A stretch of 64,000 nucleotides of DNA from Waterburya sp. (GTDB lineage: Bacteria > Cyanobacteriota > Cyanobacteriia > Cyanobacteriales > Xenococcaceae), in contig CBDCJV010000002.1 in assembly GCA_965217895.1 (NCBI GenBank), positions 3,008,001 to 3,072,000 of the forward strand. Direction: 5' to 3'. Of the stretch, positions 1 to 52,062 are shown piece by piece (position 1 is the stretch's first letter; each line of letters opens with the position of its first letter). Position numbers and translations under genes: made by a program. Under the pieces are notes generated by a model. It did no database searches. It saw only the letters and a program-made list of their open reading frames with translations, and was not told the DNA's origin.

Positions 1-403
1 ACGCTCCCGTGCTGTTTTCTTCAAAGTAAGCCAATTCTAAGTCTTGAACATGACTATAGGCATCTAAACGTATGTCATGTTGAACATCCTGTGCCAGATT
101 ACGCCATAGTCTTGTATAAGCATATTCAAATACAGATTCTAAGCCCCAGACAATTGCCGATAGTAAAGACAATACTACAAGCTGGGTAAAAATATCAGTG
201 ATACCAAAGCGAGCTACAATTGAGTCTTGCTTTTTTACTACGACATCCACCGCAGCCCCAATGATGGCAGGAGGAGCAAGATCGAAAAGTTTATTGAGGA
301 TAGAACAGATTACAGCTTGCCAAATAATAGCTTTGTATTTATCTCCATAGCGCAGCAATCGAGATAGTGGATGATTCGGCGGTTTAGCTTTATTACGGGG
401 CAT
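1..403 (-). CDS. ABC transporter permease/ATP-binding fusion, N-terminal part (runs off the window)
   Basis: ATG at 403 (minus) opens MPRNKAKPPNHPLSRLLRYG...LNKLFDLAPPAIIGAAVDVVV...LWRNLAQDVQHDIRLDAYSHVQDLELAYFEE, typical of an ABC exporter transmembrane domain; open to the window edge. Confidence 0.85.
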   Translation of the reverse strand, partial: MPRNKAKPPNHPLSRLLRYGDKYKAIIWQAVICSILNKLFDLAPPAIIGAAVDVVVKKQDSIVARFGITDIFTQLVVLSLLSAIVWGLESVFEYAYTRLWRNLAQDVQHDIRLDAYSHVQDLELAYFEENSTGA

Positions 404-618
404 ATTTAATCTGTAGTGTTTCACTTATGATTGAAAATTTAACAGATTTTAGTAACTCTTGGTAAATTATCAAATGACCTTATGCAGCACAATGAGAAAT
501 AAATGATTCCAATGAGCTATGTATCGCAGTACGTCAATCGGTTAAGACAGAAAAATCAACTGCTCGTAAGTAGCCAAGAGGTATCCCTCGCAGGGAGTAA
601 TAAGTAATAGGTAATAAG

Positions 619-736
619 TATAGTCATTCCAAATAGAAACCATACGAAAAAATCAAACTGTGATCAGTGTCACAAACCCTCCTGAGTTTTGACTTAGAAC
701 TAGTGAATCAGAAGGAAATTAATTGAAATGACTATA
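619..736. mobile_element. MITE family A (TATAGTCATT...AATGACTATA terminal inverted repeats)
   Basis: 10-bp TIRs with TA termini; related copies at 31438-31554 and 53648-53771, degenerate copy near 16108-16248. Confidence 0.75.
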
Positions 737-852
737 ATAAACGTCAGTTCGGTTTAAGCAGAAGCAGACAAAACAAAGAGATCGATAGCAATATAAGGCT
801 TCTTAGGAAAATGACAATAAGCAATTAATCCTGCAAATAAATTAGCGACAAA

Positions 853-1035
853 AAATGTCCAGAGTGCAAATCAACAAAAATAGTAAAAAATGGTCGGCGA
901 CGGGATAAACAAAATTATCTTTGTCGTAACTGTAACCGCCAGTTCATTGATACTTATAATTTGAGAGGTTATTCAAATGAAATAAAAGACCATTGTTTAA
1001 CCCTGTACTACTAACGGGATGGGATTTAGAATGCT
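853..1035 (+). pseudogene. IS1-family InsA zinc-ribbon transposase fragment, frameshifted and truncated
   Basis: Translates KCPECKSTKIVKNGRRRDKQNYLCRNCNRQFIDTY...GYSNEIKDHCLTLY, then a stop; NGMGFR continues in a shifted frame; no start codon or C-terminal part. Confidence 0.8.
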
Positions 1036-1067
1036 ACATTGCAAGAATACCGAGGCTTTGCGAAGTA

Positions 1068-1141
1068 TTGGGCTAGGCGGACTCGAACCGCCGACTTCCA
1101 CAATGTCAATGTGACACTCTAACCAACTGAGTTATAGCCCA
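1068..1141 (-). tRNA. trnV: tRNA-Val(GAC)
   Basis: Cloverleaf on minus strand: acceptor TGGGCTA/TAGCCCA, D stem ACTC/GAGT, anticodon loop TT-GAC-AT, T arm GGCGG-TTCGAGT-CCGCC; CCA not encoded. Confidence 0.97.
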
Positions 1142-1433
1142 TTGCTAAATTCTTGATTGATTATATCAAAATAATCTCAAAAAAGCTAGATTTGCCCTCA
1201 AAGCAAGAGTTAGGCATTGAAGGGCAGCTAATTACTCCTCTTGTATTAGTTTGCGATCGCGATCTCTTAATTTTTTGTTTGATAAACCTAGCCGATTTTA
1301 CTATCTATAGTCGACTAATCTCTTTTTGGTGTTTGAACACTGTTTTTAGAACTCAGTCTTAAAGCTGACGATTTTTGCGAGTATCATTGCTTATTATTAA
1401 ACTAACGATAATTATAAAACTTTAATAAAATAC

Positions 1434-2882
1434 ATGACTGCTGATTCCTCTGAATTCAAGAGCTTTAAGAAACTACTAAAAGAGAAAATTCTGTTTGGCA
1501 ATGAACCAACTCCAGAATTATTCGCCATCCTTACGGTTTACTTTGTTCAAGGAATATTGGGATTAGCTCGTTTAGCCGTTAGCTTTTTTCTTAAGGACGA
1601 TCTAGGCTTAACCCCTGCCGAAGTTGCAGCCTTGATGGGCATTGCCTCTTTACCCTGGATTATTAAACCACTGTTTGGCTTTATATCTGATGGTTTGCCT
1701 ATTTTGGGCTATCGTCGTCGCCCCTACCTGATATTATCAGGATTTTTAGGCACTATATCTTGGTTGGCTTTAGCTACCTTAGTTGATAGTGCTTGGACAG
1801 CAACTATAGCAATTTTATTAACCTCTCTTTCTGTAGCAATCAGTGATGTGATCGTCGATTCCTTAATCGTGGAAAGAGCTAGAGAAGAGTCTTTATCTCA
1901 ATCGGGATCGCTACAGTCATTGTCCTGGGGATTTTCTGCTTTGGGAGGATTGTTAACAGCTTATTTTAGTGGATTATTATTACAGCATCTCAGCAGCAAT
2001 CAAGTATTTGAAATTACGGCTAGTTTTCCCTTAATTGTTTCTGCTGTAGCCTGGCTCATTGCTGAAGAAAAGATTACCAAAGACGATTCTGAGCTAAAAA
2101 TCTCTCCTGTAAAGGAGCAAATTACACAGCTATGGAGCGCGATTAAACAAAAGCAAATTTGGTTACCCATTGCTTTTCTATTTTGTTGGCAAGCTACTCC
2201 TACCGCTGATTCAGCATTTTTCTTTTTTAGCACCAACGAACTAGGATTTGAGCCAGAATTCCTTGGTAGAATACGTCTTGTGACCAGTTTTGCCTCTTTA
2301 ATTGGCATTTTTCTGTTTCAACGCTATCTAAAAACCGTACCCTTCAGAAAGATTTTGGGTTGGAATACAGTTATTGCAGCAGCTTTAGGAATGACAACAT
2401 TATTGCTAGTAACCCATGCCAATCGTGCTTTAGGCATCGACGATCATTGGTTTAGTCTAGGAGATAGTCTGATTCTGAGCGTTGTTGGGCAAATTACCTG
2501 GATGCCTGTATTAGTGCTATCGGCTCGTCTTTGTCCTGAAGGAGTCGAAGCAACGTTATTTGCTCTTTTGATGTCTATTTGGAACTTATCGGGATTGTTA
2601 TCCCATGAATTAGGTGCATTACTTACCGCCTGGCTAGGAGTCACAGAAAACAATTTTGATCGGCTTTGGTTACTGGTAACTATTACCAATCTGTCTACCC
2701 TGCTGCCACTGCCGTTTTTAGGTTGGCTGCCTTCAGGAGATCCTCAAGCAGAATCAGCCAAAAAATCGAACCCTGGGGAAGCTCCTATTCATAGTGCAGG
2801 AGGACTAGCAGAATCTGGCATTACACCTAATCTTTTACCTGAATTTGCGGTTAACAAAAGCTTAGAAACAAACCACGATTAA
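1434..2882 (+). CDS. Folate/biopterin (BT1) family MFS transporter
   Basis: About 12 hydrophobic segments; PWIIKPLFGFISDGLPILGYRRRPY and LCPEGVEATLFALLMS motifs of the BT1 family. Confidence 0.92.
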   Translation: MTADSSEFKSFKKLLKEKILFGNEPTPELFAILTVYFVQGILGLARLAVSFFLKDDLGLTPAEVAALMGIASLPWIIKPLFGFISDGLPILGYRRRPYLILSGFLGTISWLALATLVDSAWTATIAILLTSLSVAISDVIVDSLIVERAREESLSQSGSLQSLSWGFSALGGLLTAYFSGLLLQHLSSNQVFEITASFPLIVSAVAWLIAEEKITKDDSELKISPVKEQITQLWSAIKQKQIWLPIAFLFCWQATPTADSAFFFFSTNELGFEPEFLGRIRLVTSFASLIGIFLFQRYLKTVPFRKILGWNTVIAAALGMTTLLLVTHANRALGIDDHWFSLGDSLILSVVGQITWMPVLVLSARLCPEGVEATLFALLMSIWNLSGLLSHELGALLTAWLGVTENNFDRLWLLVTITNLSTLLPLPFLGWLPSGDPQAESAKKSNPGEAPIHSAGGLAESGITPNLLPEFAVNKSLETNHD

Positions 2883-3035
2883 AGAGTTTTCAGGACTTGT
2901 AAAGTTTAAGTAAGAATGAGAAACTAGATGTCAATCGATTAAACCTCTACCAAATTTCTAAATTTTAAAACCTGACAAGTTGTGTTTAACAATTAATGAG
3001 AGAATAAAAAGCTAAATCAACTGTTAGCTGTGAAT

Positions 3036-4220
3036 ATGAGTTTAGATTGGATTAGCCGAGCCGAGCGTTTAGATGCCCTTCCTCCTTATGTATTTGCCCG
3101 TTTAGACGAATTAAAAGCCCGTGCCAGAGAACAAGGACTAGACTTAATTGATTTAGGCATGGGCAATCCTGATGGTGCAGCACCTCAGCCCATAATAGAC
3201 GCTGCGATCGCTGCTTTGCAAGATCCGCTCAATCATGGCTATCCACCTTTTGAAGGTACGGCTAGTTTCCGTCAGGCAATTACGGATTGGTATCACCGCT
3301 GCTATGGAGTTGAACTAAGTCCCGATAGCGAGGCACTACCTTTGATTGGTTCAAAAGAAGGTTTAGGTCATTTAGCAATGGCTTACGTCAATCCTGGAGA
3401 TATTATCCTGGTTCCTAGCCCTTCCTATCCTGCTCATTTTCGCGGACCATTAATTGCGGGTGCCAAGATTCAGCAAATTTATCTTTCGGCAGAGCAAAAT
3501 TGGCTAATCGATCTGAGTTCTATTCCTGAAGATGTAGCTCAAAAAGCCAAGATTCTTTATTTCAACTATCCTAATAATCCGACTACCGCCACTGCACCAC
3601 GAGAATTTTTTGAGGAGGTAGTTGAGTTTGCCCGTCACTACAAAATATTATTAGTTCACGATCTTTGCTATGCAGAATTAGCTTTCGATGGTTATCAGCC
3701 TACGTCGCTTTTAGAAATACCAGGGGCAAAAGAAATTGGGGTTGAGTTTCATACTTTATCCAAAACCTACAATATGGCTGGTTGGCGTGTAGGTTTTGTG
3801 GTGGGTAACTCCGATATTATTCAGGGTTTACGAACTCTTAAAACCAATCTCGACTACGGTATTTTCTCCGCAGTTCAAAAGGCAGCAGAAACTGCTTTAC
3901 AATTGCCCGATGAGTATATTAAGAATGTGCAGCATCGCTATAGCACTAGACGTGATTTTCTAATTAAAGGCTTGGGAGAATTAGGCTGGCAAATTCCTCC
4001 TTCTAAGGCAACCATGTATCTTTGGATAGAAACTCCTGTTGGCAAAGGTTCAACGGAATTCGCCCTTGATGTATTGCAGCAAACAGGGGTAGTTATTACT
4101 CCTGGCAACGCCTTTGGAGATGGAGGGGAAGGCTACGTTAGAATTAGTCTAATTGCCGATTGCGATCGCCTGGGAGAAGTTTTAAATCGTTTTAAAAAAG
4201 CAGGAATTACTTACAATTAA
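3036..4220 (+). CDS. PLP-dependent class I/II aminotransferase (aspartate / LL-diaminopimelate aminotransferase-like)
   Basis: NYPNNPT, DLCY and SKTYNMAGWRVG motifs; ATG at 3036 preferred over GTG at 3030. Confidence 0.9.
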   Translation: MSLDWISRAERLDALPPYVFARLDELKARAREQGLDLIDLGMGNPDGAAPQPIIDAAIAALQDPLNHGYPPFEGTASFRQAITDWYHRCYGVELSPDSEALPLIGSKEGLGHLAMAYVNPGDIILVPSPSYPAHFRGPLIAGAKIQQIYLSAEQNWLIDLSSIPEDVAQKAKILYFNYPNNPTTATAPREFFEEVVEFARHYKILLVHDLCYAELAFDGYQPTSLLEIPGAKEIGVEFHTLSKTYNMAGWRVGFVVGNSDIIQGLRTLKTNLDYGIFSAVQKAAETALQLPDEYIKNVQHRYSTRRDFLIKGLGELGWQIPPSKATMYLWIETPVGKGSTEFALDVLQQTGVVITPGNAFGDGGEGYVRISLIADCDRLGEVLNRFKKAGITYN

Positions 4221-4374
4221 ATCCTCATATCAAGTTCACGTTAAATCCGATGGGGAAAAGTATCTTAAAATTTTGAACTTATTAAACAGCTATCTACTAT
4301 CTATTAGTTTGTAGTTTTTGGTTAGTAGTTTGTAGTAAAATAATATAGTATTATTTTTGTAACTTCATTTAAAA

Positions 4375-4731
4375 ATGCAAGATTTCAAGAAGTTAAAAGT
4401 TTGACAGAAAGCCCATAATTTTACCGTTAATTTATACAAAATTTCTACTAGCTTCCCTACTGAAGAAAAGTTTGGTCTTATCAACCAAATACGACGAGCA
4501 TCGATATCAATAGAATCCAATATTGCTGAAGGATGCGGACGAAATGGTAACAAAGAATTTACTAGATTTTTATATATTGCTCAAGGTAGTGCCAAAGAAG
4601 TAAATTGTCAGATTTTAATAGCGAGAGATTTAGGTTGTTTAACTGAAGAAAAGTCTAATTTTTTGGAAGATAAAATTAATGAAATATCTAGAATGCTAAC
4701 ATCTTTAATTGAAAAAACTACAAACGACTAA
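4375..4731 (+). pseudogene. Four-helix-bundle protein (23S rRNA intervening-sequence protein family, bAvd-like) with an in-frame TGA at codon 10
   Basis: MQDFKKLKV*QKAHNFTVNLYKISTSFPTEEKFGLINQIRRASISIESNIAEGCGRNGNKEFTRFLYIAQGSAKEVNCQILIARDLG...; the TGA (4402-4404) sits at the conserved Trp of L.VWQK. Confidence 0.92.
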
Positions 4732-4770
4732 CTACTAACTACTAACTACTAACTACTAACTACTAACTAC
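4728..4770 (+). repeat. Heptamer tandem repeat (CTAACTA)x6, STRR-like
   Basis: Directly visible; overlaps the stop codon of the four-helix-bundle gene. Confidence 0.95.
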
Positions 4771-4819
4771 CCACTACCTAACAGTTAAGTAACCTACTTA
4801 AATAGAGTTTAGTATCACT

Positions 4820-5626
4820 ATGGATTTAAATACAGAAATTAAAGGACAAGGATACCCTATTCTTTGTTTACACGGTCATCCTGGTTCGTCTTCAAGTATG
4901 TCTGTATTTACCAACTATCTTTCTAGGCAGTACCAAACAATTGCTCCCGATCTCCGTGGCTATGGCAAAAGTCGCTGTAAACAGAGCTTTAAAATGCAGG
5001 ATCATATAACAGATCTTACTGCCTTACTAGACAAATATAATATAGATAGCTGTTTACTTTTGGGTTGGTCGCTTGGTGGTATTCTGGCTCTGGAATTGGC
5101 TTTAGCTATGCCCGAAAGGTTTAAGGGCATAATTCTCATTGCTACTGCTGCACATCCTTTAAGCAGCCATCCTCAACCTACCTGGCAAGAGCAATTATTT
5201 ACTGGTATTGGGGGAATCGTCAACTACATTAAACCAGCTTGGCAGTGGAATATAGATACCTTCTGCAAGCGATCGCTTTTTCGTTATTTAATTAACAATC
5301 ATGCTCCAGAATCATACTATTATTTAGCTACCGAAGCAGTACCAGCTTACTGGCAAACATCAAAAGCAGCAGATACAGCTTTATCTAACGCAATTCGACA
5401 GGGTTACAATCGCCTAGAAGACTTACACCAAATAAAAGTTCCTTGTTTAATGCTCTCAGGAGAATGCGATCGCCATATTACTGCTGACGCTAGCCAAAAA
5501 ACTGCCCAGCAGCTTCAAGACTGTCAGTATATAAACTATCTTCAGGTTGCTCATCTTTTCCCCTGGGAAATCCCAGGCCTAGTTTTAAAAGATATTCAGC
5601 AATGGCTTGAGCAAAACTTTACTTAA
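4820..5626 (+). CDS. Alpha/beta-fold hydrolase
   Basis: LHGHPG, PDLRGYG, GWSLGG nucleophile elbow, C-terminal catalytic His (VAHLF). Confidence 0.9.
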   Translation: MDLNTEIKGQGYPILCLHGHPGSSSSMSVFTNYLSRQYQTIAPDLRGYGKSRCKQSFKMQDHITDLTALLDKYNIDSCLLLGWSLGGILALELALAMPERFKGIILIATAAHPLSSHPQPTWQEQLFTGIGGIVNYIKPAWQWNIDTFCKRSLFRYLINNHAPESYYYLATEAVPAYWQTSKAADTALSNAIRQGYNRLEDLHQIKVPCLMLSGECDRHITADASQKTAQQLQDCQYINYLQVAHLFPWEIPGLVLKDIQQWLEQNFT

Positions 5627-5852
5627 TAGCTATATTAGCCAGTCAAGCTTGGTTTGGGAGGAAAGAACAGAGAAAATAACCCAAGTAAAATCTTAAACAT
5701 CAATTTGAGCAAGAAAAGAGAAGAAACGCTTTGGTATTTTATTTATGCTAAACACATATCAACTAACAGCATTGCTGATTTTAAATGTGGACTTGAAAAT
5801 GAAACTTTTTTTAATTAATAGATTTGGTAACACATAGATAAAAAATAGTAAA

Positions 5853-5996
5853 TAACGTCAGTTCGGGTTAAGAATATTAATCGGTGGAGGTAGCTATAAG
5901 CTTTTGAAATATTTTCTATGAAACTACGCCATGAAAAAATAGTATTTTTCAAATGCTTTTCTGATAAAGGTTTCTGCTTATCCCGAACTTAGGTTA
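5853..5996. mobile_element. MITE family C (TAACGTCAGTTCGGGTTAAG-type TIR)
   Basis: 20-bp TIRs, 17/20 matched; reversed copy at 29595-29746 shares internal AGGTAGCTATAAGC; lone left end at about 739-760. Confidence 0.75.
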
Positions 5997-6021
5997 AGTA
6001 GCAAGTAGTGAGTAAAGAGCA

Positions 6022-6347
6022 ATGAAAAAAACAATTAATTTCTTAACTTTGACTGTATTCGTTTTAACAATTCAGTTTTATGCTTCAGAGTCACAGGCAA
6101 CACTGGCTCAAATAAACGTAGACGGAAATGCGAGCGATGAGTTCTTGAATCAAGGAAAGAAACAGAAAGAGAAAGTCAAAATTTAGAATCTGGAAATGAT
6201 GAAATAAAGAACAATGAAATAGATCGCGAGCGACTAAACATAAAGCGTGAACAATTAAACAACAATGGCGAAACAAACCGCCGAGATCGAAACGTTGATC
6301 GACAACTAGAAAGAGAAGCAGACTCTTTCGATAAAATCAGGAAGTAA
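6022..6347 (+). pseudogene. Small secreted charged protein, split by a frameshift
   Basis: Signal-peptide-like MKKTINFLTLTVFVLTIQFYASESQA stops at 6186; a -1 frame continues KETERESQNLESGNDE...FDKIRK to TAA 6347. Confidence 0.55.
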
Positions 6348-6386
6348 TTAGTAATTAATACTTTAAATTTTACTATCAAAAAAATT

Positions 6387-7814
6387 ATGAATAATATTAC
6401 CAATCCCACAGTAATCGTCGGTGGTGGCTTTGTCGGACTGTTTACCGCCTTACATCTGAGCCATCGTCACTATAGCGAGCCTGTTATTCTAATTGATTCT
6501 CAAGATCGGTTTGTTTTTAAACCATTACTTTATGAGCATTTGACGGGGGAGATGCAGAATGAACAGGTTTTGCCCCGCTATGAAAAATTGTTAGAGGGTA
6601 GTAACGTTACTTTCATTCAGGATAAGGCAACAAAGGTTGACCTACAGCAGCGTCGGCTCGAATTAGCTTCTGGATTACACTACGATTACCGTTATCTCGT
6701 TTTAGGGGTAGGTAGTACCCAAGGATATCTTGGTACTGAGGGAGCCGAAGAAAATGCCTTTGCTTTCCGCACGCAAGAAGACACTATGGCATTAGAAAAG
6801 CACCTAAGAGAGTGTCTTCAGCGAGCTAGTCAAGTAGAATCTGCTCAAAGGGATGCTTTGCTGAGTATAGCAATAGTAGGAGCAGGGCCTTCTGGAGTGG
6901 AAATAGCCGCCACTCTCGCCGATTTATTGCCTCAATGGTATGAGAAATTAGGCGGTGACTTTGGCAACATTCGGATTGTGTTGGTCAATCACGGTCAAGA
7001 AATCCTTACAGGAGATGTTAATTCTCATTTACGAGAAACTGCCCTCCAAGCACTTAAAGAGAAGGCTATACCTGTTGAATTAATATTAGGCGCAAAAGTT
7101 ACTAAAGTTACTGGCGATCGCCTGGAATATCAGCTTGAAGGCGAAGAATCAACTAAAACTATCCAGGCTCAAACTACAGTTTGGACGGCAGGTACGGCAA
7201 ATAATCCTTTGCTCAAGACTCTATCTATTGCGGATGAAAATCGTGATAAACACGGCTTGCCTATGGTGACGGACACTTTGCAGCTACCAAATTTTCCTGA
7301 AGTATTTGCAGCAGGAGACTGTGCCGTAGTTAAAGATCGCACCTATCCTCCAGTCGCTCAAATCGCCTATCAAGAGGGAAAGACTATTGCTAAAAATTTA
7401 ATTGCATTATCGCAAAATAAAGAACTACATCCCGTCAATGCAGGTATGCGAGGCACTTTAATGAAGTTGGGTATCCGTAATGGAGTCGCTAATATTTTTG
7501 ATAAAGTGAAGGTTGATGGTAGAGCAGGAGACTCGATCCGTAATCTCACCTATCTAGAAATGCTGCCTACTCCCATACATAACTTTAATGCCACGGCAGA
7601 ATGGCTGAGTGATGAAATTTTTCATCATTATCATCAACCACATCAGCCCGCAAAACCAGGTCAACCAAAGCCAAACAAACGTTTTGCTGGTTTGGCAAGC
7701 ATTGCCGCGGGTGCAATCGCCGCGATCGCTTTAGTCGCTGGAACAAATGCGTTGTGGCGCACTATCCATTCCCCAAATCAACCGCAAGCAACCCAAGAAC
7801 AGCTCGAAAAATAA
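6387..7814 (+). CDS. NAD(P)/FAD-dependent oxidoreductase, type II NADH dehydrogenase-like, with C-terminal membrane anchor
   Basis: GGGFVG and GAGPSGVEIA dinucleotide-binding motifs, VWTAG, FAAGDCA. Confidence 0.88.
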   Translation: MNNITNPTVIVGGGFVGLFTALHLSHRHYSEPVILIDSQDRFVFKPLLYEHLTGEMQNEQVLPRYEKLLEGSNVTFIQDKATKVDLQQRRLELASGLHYDYRYLVLGVGSTQGYLGTEGAEENAFAFRTQEDTMALEKHLRECLQRASQVESAQRDALLSIAIVGAGPSGVEIAATLADLLPQWYEKLGGDFGNIRIVLVNHGQEILTGDVNSHLRETALQALKEKAIPVELILGAKVTKVTGDRLEYQLEGEESTKTIQAQTTVWTAGTANNPLLKTLSIADENRDKHGLPMVTDTLQLPNFPEVFAAGDCAVVKDRTYPPVAQIAYQEGKTIAKNLIALSQNKELHPVNAGMRGTLMKLGIRNGVANIFDKVKVDGRAGDSIRNLTYLEMLPTPIHNFNATAEWLSDEIFHHYHQPHQPAKPGQPKPNKRFAGLASIAAGAIAAIALVAGTNALWRTIHSPNQPQATQEQLEK

Positions 7815-7928
7815 TCAATTATGCTTAAAGGGTTTATATGTACACAAGCTTACGCCAACCCCTTGATCGCATTTTTAAACTACTGATTTTTCGTTATACT
7901 GCGTAACATCAGTTAATAAAATAGTTTA

Positions 7929-8612
7929 ATGGCAAAAGGCGATCTCGTATACGCATATCGAAACTTGTGGCAGCTAGACGGACTATATAAACATTACGGT
8001 ATTGACTGCGGTGACGGTACAGTAATTCATTACCGTAAGCCCAGTGAAACAATTGAAAGAACTGATTTAGCAACTTTTAGCCGAGGAAACCCTATCTACG
8101 TCGCTGAATATAGTGATGGCTTTGACTACATCCCAGATGCGGTAGTTGAAAGAGCCGAAAGTCGATTAGGAGAACAAGAATATAATTTACTGTTTAATAA
8201 CTGTGAACATTTTGCTAGCTGGTGTAAAACTGGCGTTAGCGACAGCCGACAGGTAAGAAACTTTTTACCCCTTATAAATACGCTAGATACTTCAAAACTA
8301 TATGAACCAATTAAAAACGCCTTGAAAGGTAAAGACAGCAAAACTGCACAACAGCTACTAACTGAATCTCTAATAGATATTAAATCAGTTTGGAATCAGA
8401 TCCAGCCTGAATATCAAAAAGCGATCGCCGAAATACAGGTTTGGGAAAAAGTAGCTAAAAAGGCTTTAAAAAGTAATAGAGAAGATTTAGCTCGTGCTGC
8501 GATCGCCAAAAAGTTTGACTATCAAAAAAAAGCTACCAAATTAGAAATTGAATTAAGTGAACTTGCCGAAATGACCGAAAATATTGTCCGCAATCAACAA
8601 GAATTTAGTTAA
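7929..8612 (+). CDS. LRAT/NC-domain protein with PspA/IM30-like C-terminal coiled coil
   Basis: HYGI..GDG.VIHY and YNLLFNNCEHF motifs; C-terminal ALKSNREDLARAAI. Confidence 0.88.
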   Translation: MAKGDLVYAYRNLWQLDGLYKHYGIDCGDGTVIHYRKPSETIERTDLATFSRGNPIYVAEYSDGFDYIPDAVVERAESRLGEQEYNLLFNNCEHFASWCKTGVSDSRQVRNFLPLINTLDTSKLYEPIKNALKGKDSKTAQQLLTESLIDIKSVWNQIQPEYQKAIAEIQVWEKVAKKALKSNREDLARAAIAKKFDYQKKATKLEIELSELAEMTENIVRNQQEFS

Positions 8613-8625
8613 TTGTTTAACCTAG

Positions 8626-8654
8626 GCGTTTGACAAATTTACTTTGTCAAACGC
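8626..8654. terminator. Hairpin between convergent genes, probable terminator
   Basis: GCGTTTGACAAA / TTTGTCAAACGC perfect 12-bp stem. Confidence 0.6.
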
Positions 8655-8697
8655 TCACGTTCTGTCAGACTCCAAATACTATTAAACTGCATATTAA

Positions 8698-9858
8698 CTA
8701 TGCACTGGCTTCTGCATATACGGGATAGCGGAAAATAGCTAAAGCATCTGTATCTGCTGGCATATCCTCCTCTAAAATATAGACATTGCCACCTTGAAGG
8801 AAAGTTTGAACTACAGCAAAATTGATCAAATCAATACTGTCTTCGGCTGATTCTGTCTGGAATATTACCTTATTTGCCTGTGGTTGAAATTCACCCCACT
8901 TTTGAGCATCGGCAGCGACAAACAGAGTCTCTACCTGTCCATTAGCAGCACCAGTAATTATTTGCTCTAGCTGAGAACTAGCTTCATTCGTATCAGATAG
9001 CTGATGATATTTGTCCATTGCTTGTTGGCGTTGGGCAGCAAAATGGGGTTCAATAATCTCCCAGGCTGAACGATGTAAATCTTCTGTAGCAACATCTTCA
9101 GGATTACCAGTAATTCCTGCTTCTAATAAATTATGGTATGAATTTGCTTCATGGTAGATGGGTAAAAGGTATTCTACTCCAGCTAAGATTAAAGGAGTGT
9201 TTTCTGATTGTAAAGCTGCTTTTAAACCGTTATCTATTTGATCGAAGAAACGTTTTATTTCATCTTTATTATCTGTGGTGCCAACTCCTTGACCATGATA
9301 AATAGGACTATTTCCTGAATTAGCACTATGATACTGAGTCTGTTTTTCGGGATCATCATATTTCAAAGCTTCAGCTAAACTAACTGGAACTGATTCAGGT
9401 AATTGTATTTGATTAATGCTGTAGTGGCTACCCAAGAAAAACTTCACCTGATTTTGGGATAGTGCTAATAAATAAAATTTACTATCGTTAGAAATTATGG
9501 GTAACAAAGGCTTAAGATAAAAGCGATCGCTTACCTCAACTTCTGCTTGGAAACTGTAGGGAAGACGATAATATTGAACATTATCAACATCAATAAAAAA
9601 TGCTAACCCACAATCTTGATGTTGCCAAAAATCATAATCATCTATATAGCTTTCAGCAGATTTTAATGATTTTGCTAACTCTTCTGATTTGTTCAACTGC
9701 TCTATCTTTTGTTCAGCTTCGCGAATTAAATTTTTAAAGCGGATTGTATTTTTTCTAGTTTCTGTTCCCGCCTTTTCAGCAGGCATATAAATAGAAATAC
9801 AGGTTGAGCCAGTTGTTTGAGCTAGCTTTTGAAAATCAGAGCGAGATAATTCAGTCAT
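8698..9858 (-). CDS. Bacterial archaeo-eukaryotic release factor-like protein (baeRF3/7 family)
   Basis: CISIYMP, IRFKNL, FYLKPLLP, YHGQG, PLILAGVEYL and GQVETLFV motifs. Confidence 0.8.
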   Translation of the reverse strand: MTELSRSDFQKLAQTTGSTCISIYMPAEKAGTETRKNTIRFKNLIREAEQKIEQLNKSEELAKSLKSAESYIDDYDFWQHQDCGLAFFIDVDNVQYYRLPYSFQAEVEVSDRFYLKPLLPIISNDSKFYLLALSQNQVKFFLGSHYSINQIQLPESVPVSLAEALKYDDPEKQTQYHSANSGNSPIYHGQGVGTTDNKDEIKRFFDQIDNGLKAALQSENTPLILAGVEYLLPIYHEANSYHNLLEAGITGNPEDVATEDLHRSAWEIIEPHFAAQRQQAMDKYHQLSDTNEASSQLEQIITGAANGQVETLFVAADAQKWGEFQPQANKVIFQTESAEDSIDLINFAVVQTFLQGGNVYILEEDMPADTDALAIFRYPVYAEASA

Positions 9859-9964
9859 AAAGATTTTTTAAAATGGTTGGTAACGTCTACTTATATGACA
9901 ACAAAAAAATAAGGCGATCGCATCCTTCTTTCGATAGTAAAAGATAAACAAAGCCAAAAAAATA

Positions 9965-9986
9965 AGGACGTTGATTTCAGCGTCCT
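9965..9986 (-). terminator. Intrinsic terminator downstream of the DUF2267 gene
   Basis: AGGACGTTG/CAGCGTCCT stem followed by a U-rich tract on the minus strand. Confidence 0.55.
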
Positions 9987-10030
9987 CAATATTTAAACAT
10001 TAAATTAATAGATGTATGATGCTATATTTT

Positions 10031-10885
10031 CTAGGCAGCTTCCCACATATCTTTAATTTTTCCTGGTAAAAACTCACTAACCTGACTAATTTTATCTGAA
10101 GATAATTCCTCTTTGGTAGCTGAAAAAACTGCATCAATCACTTTTTCGGCAGTTGTGCCGCGAGGCACTCCACCTTCTTTTTCGATACGATAGATAAAGG
10201 TATCTGCATCAAACTTTAAAGGCGGACGGATATTACTTAACCAGGCGACTATAGGATTATCATCGTGCCAAAGCTTGGCTATTTCCTCTTGTAGTCTTTT
10301 GTTACTAGCATTTTCCTCTGCTTCTGAGTGTAATTCTGCTTCTACTGCTTTAGATGCTTCGGTGGTCATGAGATCGCGCATGGTGCGATAAACGATAGTA
10401 GTTAAGTCTCTAGCATCAAAAATATCTTCTAATTCACCTCTGAGCATAACCTTCTCTAGAAAAGGCGTGTCTTTAGTAGCAATAGGTGTAGAAGGCCCTT
10501 TGTCTATATCATTTGGGGGATTTTTTTCCATCCGCTCAAGCATTTTTTCCCCTTTTGCGGTAAGTTTTGCTTTTTTAAACTTAATTAAATGAGGTAAAGG
10601 ACCATCGGGTGCGCCAAAAGTGTTGGCAACGCGAAAATCTACTTCTTCTTCATCGATTAAATCGGGTACATCTTCTTGATTGGCGTAGGCATTACCCGAA
10701 AACTCAGCATCAATGTACTGCTTCTGCTCTAAATAATCAAGGTGACCTAAAAAATCAGATATAGTCAAATTGCGCCCCGTAAAGTCTGTAGCTTGAAAGT
10801 CTACAGAGTGTTTTCCACTACCATCTCCTTGATGAATTTTATTAAGCAGGATGTACATTACATCATCTCTTAGAGGTATAGGCAT
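10031..10885 (-). CDS. DUF2267 domain-containing protein
   Basis: C-terminal VIDAVFSATKEELS...FLPGKIKDMW signature. Confidence 0.8.
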   Translation of the reverse strand: MPIPLRDDVMYILLNKIHQGDGSGKHSVDFQATDFTGRNLTISDFLGHLDYLEQKQYIDAEFSGNAYANQEDVPDLIDEEEVDFRVANTFGAPDGPLPHLIKFKKAKLTAKGEKMLERMEKNPPNDIDKGPSTPIATKDTPFLEKVMLRGELEDIFDARDLTTIVYRTMRDLMTTEASKAVEAELHSEAEENASNKRLQEEIAKLWHDDNPIVAWLSNIRPPLKFDADTFIYRIEKEGGVPRGTTAEKVIDAVFSATKEELSSDKISQVSEFLPGKIKDMWEAA

Positions 10886-11371
10886 ATATTTATTATTCTC
10901 TATTATTTTTTTACCAGGAAGATCTTAATAAAAATATATCAATTGTCGCATCTGCTTTAGGGATAATATTTAGATCTAACTTTAGATAGAGATGTGAGCG
11001 GGTAAAATCTGGGTTGGATTGTCCCTATTGTCTACAACTTTTGATCTGTAGGCTAGTTGAAAAAAGAAATGATCTTATTTTCGTATACCTTCTAACAGCA
11101 TGACCAAGGATTATAAACTACCCTATCTTTAAGCAGGCTACTATAGAGTAATTTGTAATTTAGCTAAAGGATCGATCAGTTTGATAGCAGTTTTTTCGGA
11201 GCTATTTATAGCTGACAACAATAGGATAAGAATTGTTAATGTCATCTTGTATTTGGTTTAAAAAATCTAGCTATTTTCCTAGCAAGCAGTCCCACTCACG
11301 CCTCATGTTTAGGATTGATTTAATTATTGTTCGTTTTTAAATAAACCCCTTTTAAATAACCCTAAAAAAAT

Positions 11372-11647
11372 ATGTTACTCGAAACTTTTGCCAAACGTTT
11401 GAAAACTGTTGCCAACTCTCTGGTCAAAAATAAATTTATTCAACCTTATTGGGTGGAAATCATTACGCAGCAACCTTCCTGTACCTACTATTTCGGACCT
11501 TTTGATTCTCGTGCAGAAGCCAAGAAAATTCAGTCTGGTTATGTAGAAGATCTGATGTCGGAAAAAGCGATTGGGATCAGTGTTGATATTAAACGCTGTT
11601 TACCTACTAGGCTAACTATTACGGACGAGGAGTACTTTGCTGAATAA
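11372..11647 (+). CDS. DUF1816 family protein
   Basis: WVEIITQQPSCTYYFGPF...GYVEDL motif; 3' end overlaps the convergent topoisomerase IB gene. Confidence 0.85.
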   Translation: MLLETFAKRLKTVANSLVKNKFIQPYWVEIITQQPSCTYYFGPFDSRAEAKKIQSGYVEDLMSEKAIGISVDIKRCLPTRLTITDEEYFAE

Positions 11648-12713
11648 TGTTTAAAACCACCTTTTCTTCTGGACTAAGCTGGTTAGATTTTGATTCTATA
11701 TTTGCCGTCTGGCTCATCAAGTCTAGTAAAGATCCATCTTCATAAGCTTCCAGAATAGCTGGATGAATGTAATATTTACGACAGGTTGCAGGACGATTAC
11801 CAAGCTGTTCGGCAACATTTTTTATTGCCTGAGTAATATTTTTACGTGCTGTATTTTCTGAGTCAAATTCACCTATTTCATCTAGCTCAATAGCAGCTAG
11901 CAGTGTGCCTGCCCAAGTGCGAAAGTCTTTTGCCGTAAACTCTTGCCCAGTTATGGTTTGGAGATACTCGTTTACGTCTGCTGAATCAACAAGTTGCTTC
12001 TCGCCAGATTCATCGTAATATTTAAATACTTCATATCCTGGTATTTCTTGACATTGCTTAATCACGTTTGCTAATCGGCGATCGCGCAGTTCTATTTCAT
12101 GATCCACACCGCTTTTGCCGCGAAATTCAAACTTTACCTTGGTGCCTGTAATATCTATATGGCGATCGCGCAGGGTAGTTAAGCCAAAAGAGCGATTCTT
12201 CTTAGCATACTGGCTGTTTCCCACCCTAATTAGAGTGGTTTCTAATAGCTGTACCACCGTTGCTAAAACCTTGTCTCTAGATAAGTCTTTTTGACGTAGA
12301 TGCTTGGCTGTAGTTGCTCTAATCTGGGGTAAGGAGGCAGCAAATAACACCATTCGATTAAACTTATGGCGATCGCGAATTTTGCGCCAGTCAGGATGGT
12401 AAAAATACTGTTTGCGCTTTTTAGCGTCTTTGCCAGTCGCCTGTAAATGCCCATGAGGTAAATGACAAATAAAGACATCGGTTAAAGCAGGGGGAATAGT
12501 TAAAGACTTGAGACGTTCTAATTCTGCTTCATCGGTAATGCGATCGCCTTTGCGATCTAAATAGCTAAAACCCCGACCAGCTTTTTTCCGTTCAATTCGT
12601 AAACTATCAGCCCGAACATATCTCAAGCCAGCAAGTTTGGCCGTCTTTTCTGGCTCAATGTCCAAAACCTTAACGATGTCGCTATTAGCTATCTTGTTTA
12701 CTGCTAACACCAT
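11619..12713 (-). CDS. DNA topoisomerase IB (bacterial/poxvirus-type)
   Basis: GHLQATGKDAKKRKQY.YH, IRVGN..Y, FRGKSG, KDFRTW and LGNRPATCRKYYIHP (catalytic Tyr region). Confidence 0.95.
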   Translation of the reverse strand: MVLAVNKIANSDIVKVLDIEPEKTAKLAGLRYVRADSLRIERKKAGRGFSYLDRKGDRITDEAELERLKSLTIPPALTDVFICHLPHGHLQATGKDAKKRKQYFYHPDWRKIRDRHKFNRMVLFAASLPQIRATTAKHLRQKDLSRDKVLATVVQLLETTLIRVGNSQYAKKNRSFGLTTLRDRHIDITGTKVKFEFRGKSGVDHEIELRDRRLANVIKQCQEIPGYEVFKYYDESGEKQLVDSADVNEYLQTITGQEFTAKDFRTWAGTLLAAIELDEIGEFDSENTARKNITQAIKNVAEQLGNRPATCRKYYIHPAILEAYEDGSLLDLMSQTANIESKSNQLSPEEKVVLNIIQQSTPRP

Positions 12714-24260: not shown

Positions 24261-25622
24261 ATGTCTAGATTTACCGCAATCTCTGTCTTGGGAGCATTAA
24301 TGTCAGACAACTATTTTTCCAGTACTGAATTTACCGCTTTGTGTCAGTCTCAGATAACAATACTGTCTAAAAGTTTGGGAGCGGTATGGAGCGTGATTTA
24401 TTTAACAGAGGAAATGAGCGAAGATGGACAGGCGCAGTTGTTTCCTTTGGCAGTTTATCCTCAAGGTAAAAATAAAAAAGCTTTAGAACTTCCTCCTGTT
24501 AAATTATCTGAGTTTTGGCAACAGTTACAGTCTAATTCAGTTGCTCAGTTACTACCTGCTAATTTGACCAACAAAAATACTAAAAATCAATCAGCACCTA
24601 ATCTAAAATCTGGCTCAGAAGAGAGAAAACAGTTAATAGTACCTTTGATTCATCAAGATACTTTTTTTGGTTTGCTAGTAACTGGAAGAGAGGATCGAGA
24701 ATGGCAATCAACAGAGTTAAGGCAGATCGAAGAAATTACGCGAACTATTGCGATCGCTCGTTTTTTAGAGCTTCAATATCACTGGACTAAAGAAGAATTG
24801 ACCGCTCAAAAAAATCGGCAACGTCTTGAGCGCGATCGCCAAGACGATCTGTTACATCAGCTACGTAACCCTTTAACTGCACTGCGGACATTTGGCAAAT
24901 TATTGATTAAACGCTTGCTGCCAGGCGATAGCAATCGTTTAATTGCTCAGAGCATCCTAGAACAAAGCGATCGTTTTCAACAGCTTCTAGAACAGTTTGA
25001 AACCGAGTCAAACGCTATAGATTCAATTAATTACGAAGATTTTGAGCGGAGCAAGATCCCTGTCTTAGAAGCTAGTGATTTTACGGTAGCACAAAGCAAC
25101 TTTTTGTTACCAAGCTCTGATAAAGAATTAGATTCTCTAGATTTGCAGCAAATTCTCGAACCTCTCTTGAATACAGCCAAGGCGATTGCTACAGACAGAA
25201 ATATTAAATTAACTACTAACATTCCCTCAATTATCCCCAAGGTAAGAGCAGATATTTCAGCTTTGAGAGAAATTTTTAATAACTTAATTGACAATGCTTT
25301 AAAGTACACTCCTGCTGGAGGAAAAGTGCAGCTCGATTTAGAAACAAAGCAGTTGGCAACTGAGCCAAAAATGTTGGGTATAGCAATTAGTGATACTGGT
25401 TATGGTATTCCCACAGCCGATCGAGAGCATATTTTTGAGCGACACTATCGGGGAATACAGGCACAAAGCGATATTCCTGGCACTGGTTTAGGACTGGCGA
25501 TCGCTCATGAACTGATTGTCAAGATGCAGGGAAAAATTGAATTAATCAGCCCTAACAATTTGTCAAAAGATAGTCCTGGTACTACCTTTATTGTGTGGAT
25601 ACCTGTTTTCATTGAGCATTGA
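24261..25622 (+). CDS. GAF-domain sensor histidine kinase
   Basis: LLHQLRNPLT H-box, NLIDNALKYT, DTGYGI, GTGLGL. Confidence 0.92.
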   Translation: MSRFTAISVLGALMSDNYFSSTEFTALCQSQITILSKSLGAVWSVIYLTEEMSEDGQAQLFPLAVYPQGKNKKALELPPVKLSEFWQQLQSNSVAQLLPANLTNKNTKNQSAPNLKSGSEERKQLIVPLIHQDTFFGLLVTGREDREWQSTELRQIEEITRTIAIARFLELQYHWTKEELTAQKNRQRLERDRQDDLLHQLRNPLTALRTFGKLLIKRLLPGDSNRLIAQSILEQSDRFQQLLEQFETESNAIDSINYEDFERSKIPVLEASDFTVAQSNFLLPSSDKELDSLDLQQILEPLLNTAKAIATDRNIKLTTNIPSIIPKVRADISALREIFNNLIDNALKYTPAGGKVQLDLETKQLATEPKMLGIAISDTGYGIPTADREHIFERHYRGIQAQSDIPGTGLGLAIAHELIVKMQGKIELISPNNLSKDSPGTTFIVWIPVFIEH

Positions 25623-25688
25623 ACATTGAACATTGAGCATTGACCAACAATAGATGTTAAATGTTAACTGATAAATGTTTAATGTTAA
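25610..25688. repeat. Inverted heptamer arrays (CATTGAR)x5 and (ATGTTAA-like)x5 forming an intergenic hairpin
   Basis: Directly visible; similar arrangement at 48365-48432 on the minus strand. Confidence 0.85.
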
Positions 25689-25691
25689 CCG

Positions 25692-34882: not shown

Positions 34883-34960
34883 GTTAGTAGTTAGTAGTTA
34901 GTAGTTAGTAGTTAGTAGTTAGTAGTTAGTAGTTAGGGGCGAACGGTCGTTCGCCCGTAC
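34883..34960. repeat. (GTTAGTA)x7 heptamer array joined to a REP-like palindrome
   Basis: Seven perfect units at 34883-34931, then TAGGGGCGAACGGTCGTTCGCCCGTAC. Confidence 0.92.
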
Positions 34961-38991: not shown

Positions 38992-39084
38992 GATACTGAA
39001 TCTTCAAGTAGGTACTTTTCTTTAACTACAAACGACTAACCATAAACTACAAACTTTTATGCAATTTATTAAAAGGGAGAAAAC

Positions 39085-41103: not shown

Positions 41104-41145
41104 GGAGCAAGGTAGTAGGTAGTAGTAGTAGGTAGTAGGTAGTAG

Positions 41146-43497
41146 TTAGCTAACTTTAAATTTAGCGACGCTGCTTTGTAGCTGTTGGGCTACGTTTAAC
41201 AAGTCTTTAAAAGAGGCAGACACGGCGATCGCTTCGGAAGCGGTTTTATTAGAGATGGTGGCAACCTGCATCATGGTTTGACTAACTAGTTTGGAGTCTT
41301 GAGACTGTTCCACTGTAGCCGAGGCAATTTGTCCCACCAACTGATTAATTTCTTGGCTCACATCGGCAATTTCAGTTAGGGAGTGACGGGTTTTATCCAC
41401 TAGTTTTGTACCTGCAACTACCTGTTCTGTGCCAGATTCCATAGCTGCTACCACTTCATTTGTTTCTGCCTGAATCTCTGCCACCAGAGCCTCAATTTCT
41501 GCCGTTGCTGCTGCTGATTGACGAGCCAGCGATCGCACCTCATCGGCAACTACCGCAAAGCCTCTTCCTTCCTCTCCTGCGTGAGCAGCCTCAATCGAAG
41601 CATTTAAAGCCAACAGGTTAGTTTGATCGGCAAAATTACTAATTACGGTGACTACCTTAGAAATTTTCTGGGATGACTCTCCTAAACGTTTTACCTTTTT
41701 GGCAGTTTCGGCAACGGTGTCTCTAATTTCTTGGAAACCTGCCACAGTCAGATTCATGGCATCATCCCCAGCCTTTACCGTCTGGGAGGCTTTGAATACT
41801 GCTGCTTCTGCTGCTTTGGCATTACTGGCTACAGCCTGAATTGAATCAGTAATTAGCTGAATCCGCTTCAAAGCTGAATTAATTTCTTGGGTTTGTACCG
41901 ATGCGTCTGTAGAAAGTTCTTGAATTGAGATATCTTTGTCGCTGGTTGTAGTTGTTACTTGTGTGGCAGCAGTTTGTACTTGTGCTACTAGCTTCCTCAG
42001 ACTTTCAATCGTCGCGTTATAAGAGTCCCCAATTGTACCGATTTCATCTTCCTGTACCTTTACCTGTACGGTTAAATCTCCCTGACTAACGGGGTCTACC
42101 TCCATTAGTAACTCAAAGGCTCGGCGTTGCAAAGTTTCCCTAGCAGCTCTTTCTTTTTGCTCGGCTAGCTTTTGCTTTTCTAGCAGCTCTACTTTTTCTA
42201 AAGTATTGCCTACCTGAGAGGCGATCTCGCTTAGCAGAGTAATTTCGTACTTTTGCCAAGCTCTAGGCTGATCGCATTGGTGAGCAATCAGTAAACCAGC
42301 TAATTTATTGTCAATTATCACGGGAGTAACTAAGCTGGCAATGACGGCAAAAGGTTCTAACATCTTGAGGTGACACTCATTTAAATCTGCTTGATAAATA
42401 TTGGCGATCGCCTTTACTTCTCCCTGCTGATATTTTTCGGCGTAACCTTGGGCAAAACAAGGATCGTTAATCTCCGCATTCAGAGCTACAGGATATTTTT
42501 CGTCTACTGCTTCTGCTATTATTTTGCCCTGCCACTGGGCATCAAAACGATGATAAATAACGCGATCTGCCTTGAGAACCCCTTTACTGCTTTCTACTGT
42601 AACTTGCAAAATTTCTGAGACATCTTTGGCTTGGGAGATATCCCAGGCAATTTCTTTAAGTAAACTAGAACGTTCGGCATCCTGCTTGAGGCGAGCTTCA
42701 TTAATTTGAATTGAATCTGCCAAAAGATTAAATGTACTGCCTAATAAGCCCACTTCATCAGTCGAATCAACCGCAGCCCTAACTGCAAAATTGCCCTCAG
42801 AGAAATCTTGAGCTACTCTTTGCAGATTTTGAATTGGCTCGGCGATCGCTTTACTGAGAATTTTACTCAAAGCGATGATTGCCATTAAAACAATAATTGC
42901 TAAAATTGACTGTGCCAGTAAGCTACTTTTGAGTACGCCGTGAATTAAGCTTAGAGAATTGCCAGAGACTAAAATTCCTAAAGGTTGTCCAGTATTATCG
43001 GCGATCGTTTTTGCTGCCAAAGCATACTTATTGCCTTCAATTGTCCCTATTTGATTGACTATTTTGCCGTTGCTGGCGATCGCTAAATCTAAAATTTTTT
43101 GATTGTTAATAGTAGTACCAGAGGATGCAGATAAAGTAAAATCTCCGCTCGGCTGGCGCAAATAAACTGCACTGTAACCCTGTTGTCTTGTCAAAGCAAT
43201 CACCGTTTTTTCTAATACTGGTAATTTGTTGTCAGCCACCTCATTAGCCAAAATAATTTCAATTACTTGATTTTTTACAGCTATGTTTGCATCTACTTGC
43301 TCTATTAATTGGTTCTTTAAAGTTTCATTGAGCCATAGTCCGCCTGCACCAATAACCATAATTAATCCTCCAAAGCTAAACCAAGGAATTAATGCAGTTT
43401 TGCGATTAATTGGTAAATGATAGAGTCGGCGCAGCCAGCCAGAATTTATTGGCAATTGACTATGTTCTTGATGTTTAAATTGAGTCGAATTATTCAT
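41146..43497 (-). CDS. pixJ: Cyanobacteriochrome photoreceptor MCP (PixJ-like, single DXCF GAF)
   Basis: GAF with DPCF and CH motifs, HAMP and MCP signalling domain; start 43497 or 43515. Confidence 0.88.
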
Positions 43498-51917: not shown

Positions 51918-52062
51918 ATACTAAATCCGATTAGAAAAAATATCTTCAATAATAAGTTCGTAGTATGTAGTTCGTCGTTGGTAGTAAAAAAACGACGAAC
52001 TACATACTAACCACTACTTACTACTTGAAAGTTAAGTAACCTATTGGAATAAGATTTAGTAT
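51918..52062. mobile_element. Family B element, empty (cargo-less) form
   Basis: Perfect 10-bp TIR ATACTAAATC/GATTTAGTAT; perfect internal 19-bp inverted repeat (51961-51979 / 51991-52009); ends homologous to 4238-4815. Confidence 0.85.

Follow-up and report, generated by a model that had tools for sequence, protein, structure and literature searches.

A window of 64,000 nucleotides from Waterburya sp. (that is, the whole stretch of DNA that was analysed) carries, between an aspartate aminotransferase gene and an alpha/beta hydrolase gene, a dead remnant: a single, immobile-looking cassette, similar to the intervening sequences (IVSs) of 23S rRNA, inside an IS630-family MITE. Comparing this copy with its relatives, we suggest that IVS-like cassettes of this kind dock by repeat homology, hitchhike on MITEs and decay to hairpins, a scenario that we consider probable, if by a modest measure. 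The value of the case lies in the comparison (that is, an allele series in close species and a replicate in the genome G006) and not in the dead window copy. It links three loose ends, namely the very large PF05635 family that has no assigned function, the heptamer runs of cyanobacteria and other bacteria, and the transposase-free spread of small genes, and the allele series and the replicate are concrete substrates for binding and integration assays. On the basis of GCGATCGC sites and gene content, the host would be placed among cyanobacteria.

The element, all features of which lie on the + strand, opens with the left shell of the MITE (4239-4290), a ‘long-left’ type whose terminal inverted repeat (TIR) reads CGTTAAATCC in place of TACTAAATCC, and closes with the right shell (4781-4814), whose TIR reads GAGTTTAGTA in place of the intact GGATTTAGTA; both ends have thus decayed, with three mismatches on the left and two on the right in the terminal 10 nt. 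Between the shells follow a heptamer piece of the right-arm type (TATCTAC TATCTA, 4291-4303), the left heptamer arm (TTAG TTTGTAG TTTTTGG TTAGTAG TTTGTAG, 4304-4335), which can pair with the right arm, a decayed box of the -10 type that is a putative promoter (TAAAAT, 4336-4341), a PF05635/TIGR02436 four-helix-bundle pseudogene of 118 codons (4375-4731) and a right heptamer array of nine units (CTACAAA, CGACTAA, five of CTACTAA, CTACCCA and CTACCTA; 4718-4780), which overlaps the last codons and the stop of the gene and whose outer units are the same as those of the host MITE array. Because the piece at 4291-4303 stands outside the left arm, the left arm and the gene are flanked by direct repeats, and this left junction recurs in a relic in G019 (L276) and in G000 at C2:1800027. 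The aspartate aminotransferase gene (3030-4220, +; NF004611) lies upstream, and the alpha/beta hydrolase gene (4820-5626, +) begins with its ATG at 4820, past the right shell. A contig from the likely source sample is identical over 4121-4756, a confirmation that is not independent. More runs matching these heptamer arms occur in the window at 34883-34936, 39018-39055 and 41110-41149 (C2:3042883, C2:3047018 and C2:3049110).

The assignment of the gene to PF05635, as proposed in the initial annotation, is borne out by profile scores of 136.4 bits for PF05635 (cut-off 33.8; E 5e-40) and 128.2 bits for TIGR02436 (cut-off 24; E 1.5e-37), and the nearest solved structure is 2GSC, with five chains (phmmer E 1.3e-17). 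Codon 10 is an in-frame TGA (4402-4404) at a position that is almost invariant in the family (tryptophan in 92 and a stop in 2 of 96 aligned relatives), and the window gene is a pseudogene. TGA also occupies this codon in a 68%-identical relative (L046, G020:C1:2529723), probably as an independent hit. A -10-like box follows the left arm in 11 of the 12 other relatives listed (TACAAT or TATAAT, at about -30 to -39), where the window reads TAAAAT; a sigma-70 scan returned nothing above chance and nothing on the + strand, and it did not detect the TAAAAT box. The gene is under purifying selection in the one pair that was compared (dN 0.045, dS 1.38), and inside ISAs1 shells pN is 0.05 and pS 0.43. 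Neither the 61 family genomes nor 80 of the 187 genome_contigs loci held a protein relative of more than 79% identity.

The shell belongs to an IS630-family MITE with TACTAAATCC ends and a TA target, and shares its TIRs with autonomous IS630 elements in the genome. Among these, a 1161-bp IS has terminal 15-16 nt identical to those of a short MITE copy, scores 122.5 bits against NF033545 (cut-off 100) and is present in seven full copies of 99.8-100% identity and one partial copy; G007 holds an intact 359-aa IS630 transposase relative, the IS ends of which are even closer to the MITE. The transposase of the active IS630 at L002 (G000:C2:2984655-2985815) is spread over two frames that meet in an A-rich stretch, and that of the G007 relative is a single ORF. 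Of 22 left-end matches in the genome, 15 have a partner at the right end and so delimit elements, 14 of them 124-192 bp long and the fifteenth 576 bp; together these form a multi-copy family without transposase. TA is found at both ends of 18 of the 20 sites listed, the exceptions being the left end of the window copy and one end at C2:256563, and the flanks of the IS630/MITE sites follow NTNA/TNAN. By analogy with IS630 elements, which are described as inserting into TA and duplicating it by a mechanism as in ISY100 (PMC2170065), the TA was presumably duplicated on insertion; no exact empty allele was seen among these IS630/MITE sites. In relatives, shells with the same TIRs contain other small repeats.

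The initial annotation had paired the window element with a short copy near 51918, which is a gene-free two-armed hairpin of the same MITE family (51919-52061, +; 143 bp with both TA, TIRs intact). The similarity of their ends (23/28 nt on the left at 4242-4269, 27/33 on the right) was exactly reproduced and exceeds chance: at these thresholds, the genome gives 15 left and 7 right matches (self included) as opposed to 0-1 and 0 with shuffled queries (five shuffles each), and all of the genome matches are positions of the window element family or its decayed IS630 parent. The short copy does form a perfect 19-bp stem with loop GGTAGTAAAAA (folding z -7.0), and the long copy is opened at the matching point, where 371 bp (4341-4711) separate GTAGTAAAA from AAAAAACTAC and the stop codon of the 118-codon gene falls within the right arm. 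To the left of this opening point the A-run is present, although it belongs to the decayed -10-like box. As an empty counterpart, however, the 51918 copy is not the closest one. G017, G020 and G023 contain one-armed MITEs that have only a direct CTAC(C/T)NA run, and six of these match the loaded left shell over 45/51 to 55/62 nt, whereas the 14 hairpin copies align to it over 38/46 nt at most and the 51918 copy over 23/28. Judged by the shell sequence, the nearest gene-free relatives of the loaded copy are therefore the one-armed sister MITEs and not the hairpins. In the loaded copy the CTAC(C/T)NA run is split, with 4291-4303 to the left of the left arm and the remainder beyond the right arm.

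Two further observations in close species concern the loaded state and its loss. At the aminotransferase-hydrolase junction, synteny was found in 4 of the 28 relatives' loci examined and the element is absent in all four; a contig of run X6 likewise skips it. The genome has a single loaded copy of this shell, which may have arrived loaded at this junction or may have been loaded in place. The second observation is the G019 relic, a cassette that is 94% identical to that of the window and that lies at a different site, within a small array. Its left junction is that of the window copy (26/27) and its final 62 nt are conserved as well (58/62); the remaining gene sequence has been lost, and MITE ends are absent. 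At the orthologous site of G020 the flanks of the relic join as an uninterrupted small array, and the corresponding position is taken up by different sequence in G017, in G023 and in this genome. One cassette lineage therefore occupies two unrelated arrays, one of them shell-free, and gene loss from the loaded state is directly seen. Read contigs (X1/X2) that join 4317 to 4666 were considered as a possible excision at the window locus, a reading that was rejected as the joint matches the G019-type relic at another site.

A similar comparison can be made at window positions 25610-25690, a gene-free heptamer hairpin of the CATTGAG/TGTTAAA type. The orthologous gap holds no run in G020, one unit in G017, a hairpin in G023 and a loaded cassette in G019, and unrelated heptamer runs in other members of the genus. 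Taken over five close species, the alleles form a series of none, one-armed, loaded, partly deleted and hairpin. The polarity of the G019/G020 pair and of the window/one-armed comparison is not strict, as the same alleles would result if a loaded ancestor had undergone excision; among the matches listed, orthologous empty sites in this genome were identified for only a few of the 29 sister loci. These alleles bear on a step implied in the initial annotation, by which the gene had opened the loop of a pre-existing hairpin, a gene-only segment entering the loop of heptamer hairpins at an A-run. Several short copies do have A-rich loops at the position that matches the gene insertion point, and the site at 25610-25690 is a gene-free hairpin here and loaded in G019; yet the two alleles of that site, loaded and empty, do not have the same arm units, the arms move with the gene and track its clade, the nearest gene-free relatives are one-armed, and the G019 relic shows partial loss of a gene. 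We therefore regard loop insertion as very improbable, and it fits the window copy less well than the alternatives do.

What recurs across loci is the gene together with its arms. A profile search of the genome found four PF05635 genes, one of which is split by an integrated element, and all four have mirror arms of their own with differing units; a further locus missed by this search (L436, G000:C2:1413978-1414100) is another gene relic, in which two short arms enclose what is left of a PF05635-like gene, namely its 3′ third. When ‘armed’ was defined by script as a period-7 signal on both sides plus complementarity of the arms, 21 of 29 genus loci and 30 of 60 loci mostly of other phyla were armed, and in the larger genus set (111 loci minus 8 partial ones) the count was 67 of 103, as compared with none of 600 control ORFs (long ORFs of this genome, their lengths unmatched to those of PF05635 genes). 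The left-arm unit mirrors the right arm of its own locus at 5.9 of 7 positions (n = 58) and tracks the protein clade (Mantel rho 0.35 versus a permutation maximum of 0.13, n = 58), a covariation that is expected from linkage and kinship alone. Together with the shell-free relic, this census upholds the alternative that the initial annotation had also offered, that gene plus arms form a unit of their own, and supports the view that left arm, gene and right arm come and go as one cassette. MITEs are not the main home of such arrays, because only 9 of the 54 arrays of the window heptamer family in the genome are close to a TIR. In the other cassettes inspected by eye, no right-arm piece could be made out beyond the left arm, which means that pop-in between direct repeats is not a general rule.

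The other alternative, that the MITE ferries the gene as cargo, is demonstrated for related shells, by pairs of loaded copies in G023 (ISAs1-type) and in G006 (TACTAAATCC-type), though not for the window copy. No further loaded copy of the window's exact shell subtype was found among the 15 paired elements of the genome (14 short hairpins and the one loaded copy), in 50 of the left-end matches of relatives or in nine long-left matches from 61 family genomes, and a 32-nt pattern of the window shell had no exact match in metagenome contigs. Loaded copies do occur in related shells. G023 has, at separate sites, two loaded ISAs1-type elements of 574 bp, which agree at 573 of 574 positions and one of which is bordered by a 12-bp repeat. 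Loaded copies related to them occupy other sites in G017 and G019, and a loaded element of 511 bp in G020 has no counterpart at the orthologous position of this genome. Sister shells have thus transposed with the gene as cargo. A locus in G023 (L245, G023:C1:4556121) nests four elements, with a heptamer hairpin enclosing a CAATACCGTTCGG-ended MITE, this in turn a GGGGGATTTAGGGGG hairpin and this a loaded ISAs1-type shell; this genome has only the outer hairpin. In a census that covered only the end motifs already noticed, 13 of the 103 genus loci lie between both ends of a shell and 90 do not, the window copy falling outside the 13 because its left TIR has decayed. The 13 loci represent five shell types: ISAs1-type (four), a type that we take to be IS200/IS605-like (three), an ACGT..TGTGAA type (three), a CTGACTTTTCACGG type (two) and TACTAAATCC (one).

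The TACTAAATCC locus, in G006, has an intact PF05635 gene of another clade with arms made of GGGTAAC; the TACTAAATCC ends that enclose it are perfect, and the gene is oriented the other way round from that of the window copy. G006 also contains seven one-armed GGGTAAC MITEs with TACTAAATCC ends (one of them broken by a contig end), and the left arm of the loaded copy is the GGGTAAC array of these MITEs. A second loaded copy at another site is decayed and internally deleted, and its left TIR was not seen. The empty-to-loaded direction is favoured because the empties hold about 30 nt that are absent from the loaded copy and because 4-5 similar one-armed left ends are found in other species (G008, G013, G047 and G054). 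This favours the interpretation that the array of the MITE became one arm of the cassette, and TACTAAATCC shells would have been loaded at least twice, with cassettes of different clades and in different orientations.

These data can be set against a simpler account, in which the cassette was acquired a single time, by chance, by an IS630 derivative that then spread as a mobile insertion cassette, all the one-armed and hairpin MITEs being deletion products and the cassette having no mobility of its own. Such an account is attractive in that the loaded copy combines features of both short forms (the long-left shell and the left arm) and looks old (decayed TIRs and a stop codon), loaded shells do transpose, and five short copies retain the terminal 22 nt of the gene, AAAAAACTACAA(A/G)CGACTAAC, a retention that also follows from arm complementarity. 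We nonetheless consider it unlikely: the G019 relic is shell-free and its flanks are joined directly in G020, most cassettes have no recognised shell, the G006 empties contain sequence that the loaded copy lacks, and TACTAAATCC shells appear to have been loaded at least twice, in different clades and orientations.

The scenario that we prefer comprises two nested modules, a MITE shell and a cassette. The shell is a non-autonomous IS630-family MITE that would be moved in trans by an IS630 transposase into TA. The cassette (left arm, -10-like box, PF05635 gene and right arm), similar in design to ORF-bearing 23S rRNA IVSs, may enter existing runs of its own heptamer through repeat-homology recombination, either by pop-in/pop-out or by gene conversion. 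Because its heptamer runs often sit on MITEs, the cassette would come to lie between IS ends and thereby become transposable as cargo. Deletion of the gene would then leave a two-armed hairpin and deletion of the whole stem a one-armed run, such that the hairpins would be products of gene loss. The window copy would have reached the aminotransferase-hydrolase junction in this lineage, and is dead today. As to the protein, we think it most likely that it forms a pentameric ring on the heptamer arms of its own cassette and contributes to their maintenance or spread. A wider generalization, which we put forward tentatively and with less than even confidence, is that PF05635 genes with mirror heptamer arms are transposase-free selfish elements, whose pentamer recognises the heptamer cognate to it and favours recombination that brings the cassette into any run that matches; the abundant runs and hairpins of cyanobacterial genomes would then be its landing sites and remains, MITEs would serve as vehicles only incidentally, and an rRNA IVS with an ORF would be a copy whose landing site was in rRNA.

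An RNA route is also conceivable, in which the arms pair in a transcript, RNase III excises the cassette, and an Avd-like pentamer and a borrowed reverse transcriptase (RT) return it to DNA at matching repeats. The precedent is the S23p IVS of Coxiella burnetii, in which a gene of the same family is described together with heptamer repeats upstream of it, a terminal stem of 28 bp and removal by RNase III (PMC4990558, which also cites a homopentamer for the Xanthomonas protein of the family). Moreover, PF05635 is reported to resemble Avd, which is essential to retrohoming of diversity-generating retroelements (DGRs; PMC10053308), the window protein matches the bAvd profile PF22296 (E 3.6e-7) and the Avd profile NF033474 (E 1.6e-7), albeit below their cut-offs (31.1 versus 40 bits and 31.6 versus 80 bits, respectively), and the two arms pair when folded alone (-33.8 kcal/mol versus -11.1 +/- 3.6 for shuffles, with 0 of 500 as good). 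However, the whole long element folds no better than shuffles (z -0.8) and the longest unbroken helix is 12 bp, inspection by eye of the ORFs at window positions 1-12000 revealed no RT gene, and DNA recombination explains the junctions without extra assumptions. We thus hold the RNA route to be distinctly unlikely, and retain docking by DNA recombination as the working scenario.

Two further observations concern PF05635 genes at other loci. An element of about 9 kb in G000 (C2:5147748-5156605, L301) interrupts PF05635 genes near codon 62. It contains a 681-aa ORF, what by inspection is a DnaB-like helicase, and three genes that resemble tyrosine recombinases. Between three species its ends share 97-99.9% identity, and the element recurs in three different PF05635 genes of G019 (L242/L259, L250/L256 and L253) and in G020 (L243/L257); PF05635 genes appear to be its attachment sites. 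A single genome (OZ240210.1; L196, L215-L226 and L228-L232) contains 18 copies of a PF05635 gene at 99.4-100% identity; in these the upstream boundary is largely constant, the downstream ends vary in position and the right arm is the only one present. Many of these copies stand head-to-head with an ORF for which Pfam has no family and whose motifs are suggestive of rolling-circle initiators.

Heptamer tandem repeats of cyanobacteria go by the name of STRR. The window arms resemble such repeats in being intergenic 7-base tandem runs, often beside start or stop codons (PMC4679880), but are tied to a gene family and in mirror arrangement. The available text of that paper describes TAACTGA runs, gives their mode of transmission as unknown and contains no link to the PF05635 family that we could find. 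Other accessible accounts place PF05635 in cas loci (PMC3936711) and among strain-unique genes (PMC8700078); a survey of the literature that covered few subscription journals found no paper that ties the family to MITEs or to inverted heptamer arms outside rRNA. Of the better-known systems, the 23S rRNA IVS of C. burnetii shares with the window cassette a PF05635 gene within complementary ends, heptamers just upstream of the start and an ORF that is prone to decay, but the window cassette is intergenic, between two protein genes and not in rRNA, and cassettes of this kind occur at many unrelated sites, with heptamer arrays as both arms, and within IS shells. IS630/Tc1-mariner MITEs offer the same combination of TIRs in common with a resident IS630, TA ends, no transposase and near-identical short copies at several sites, whereas here the interior is variable (a heptamer run, a hairpin or a gene cassette) and the window TIRs have decayed. 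With the Avd/bAvd accessory proteins of DGRs, the window protein shares a related four-helix-bundle family and the five-chain 2GSC as the nearest structure; unlike them, it falls below both Avd cut-offs, and no RT, TR or VR was seen adjoining the gene, the immediate neighbours of which are the aminotransferase and the hydrolase. Mobile insertion cassettes (MICs) and transporter ISs, which are known classes (PMC3129680), likewise carry a passenger gene between IS ends without a transposase of its own, although the passenger family described here is found in five types of shell, comes with arms of its own and for the most part lacks a shell altogether. The window feature is neither an rRNA IVS nor a DGR; in its behaviour it would resemble a MIC, and in its appearance it resembles an IVS.
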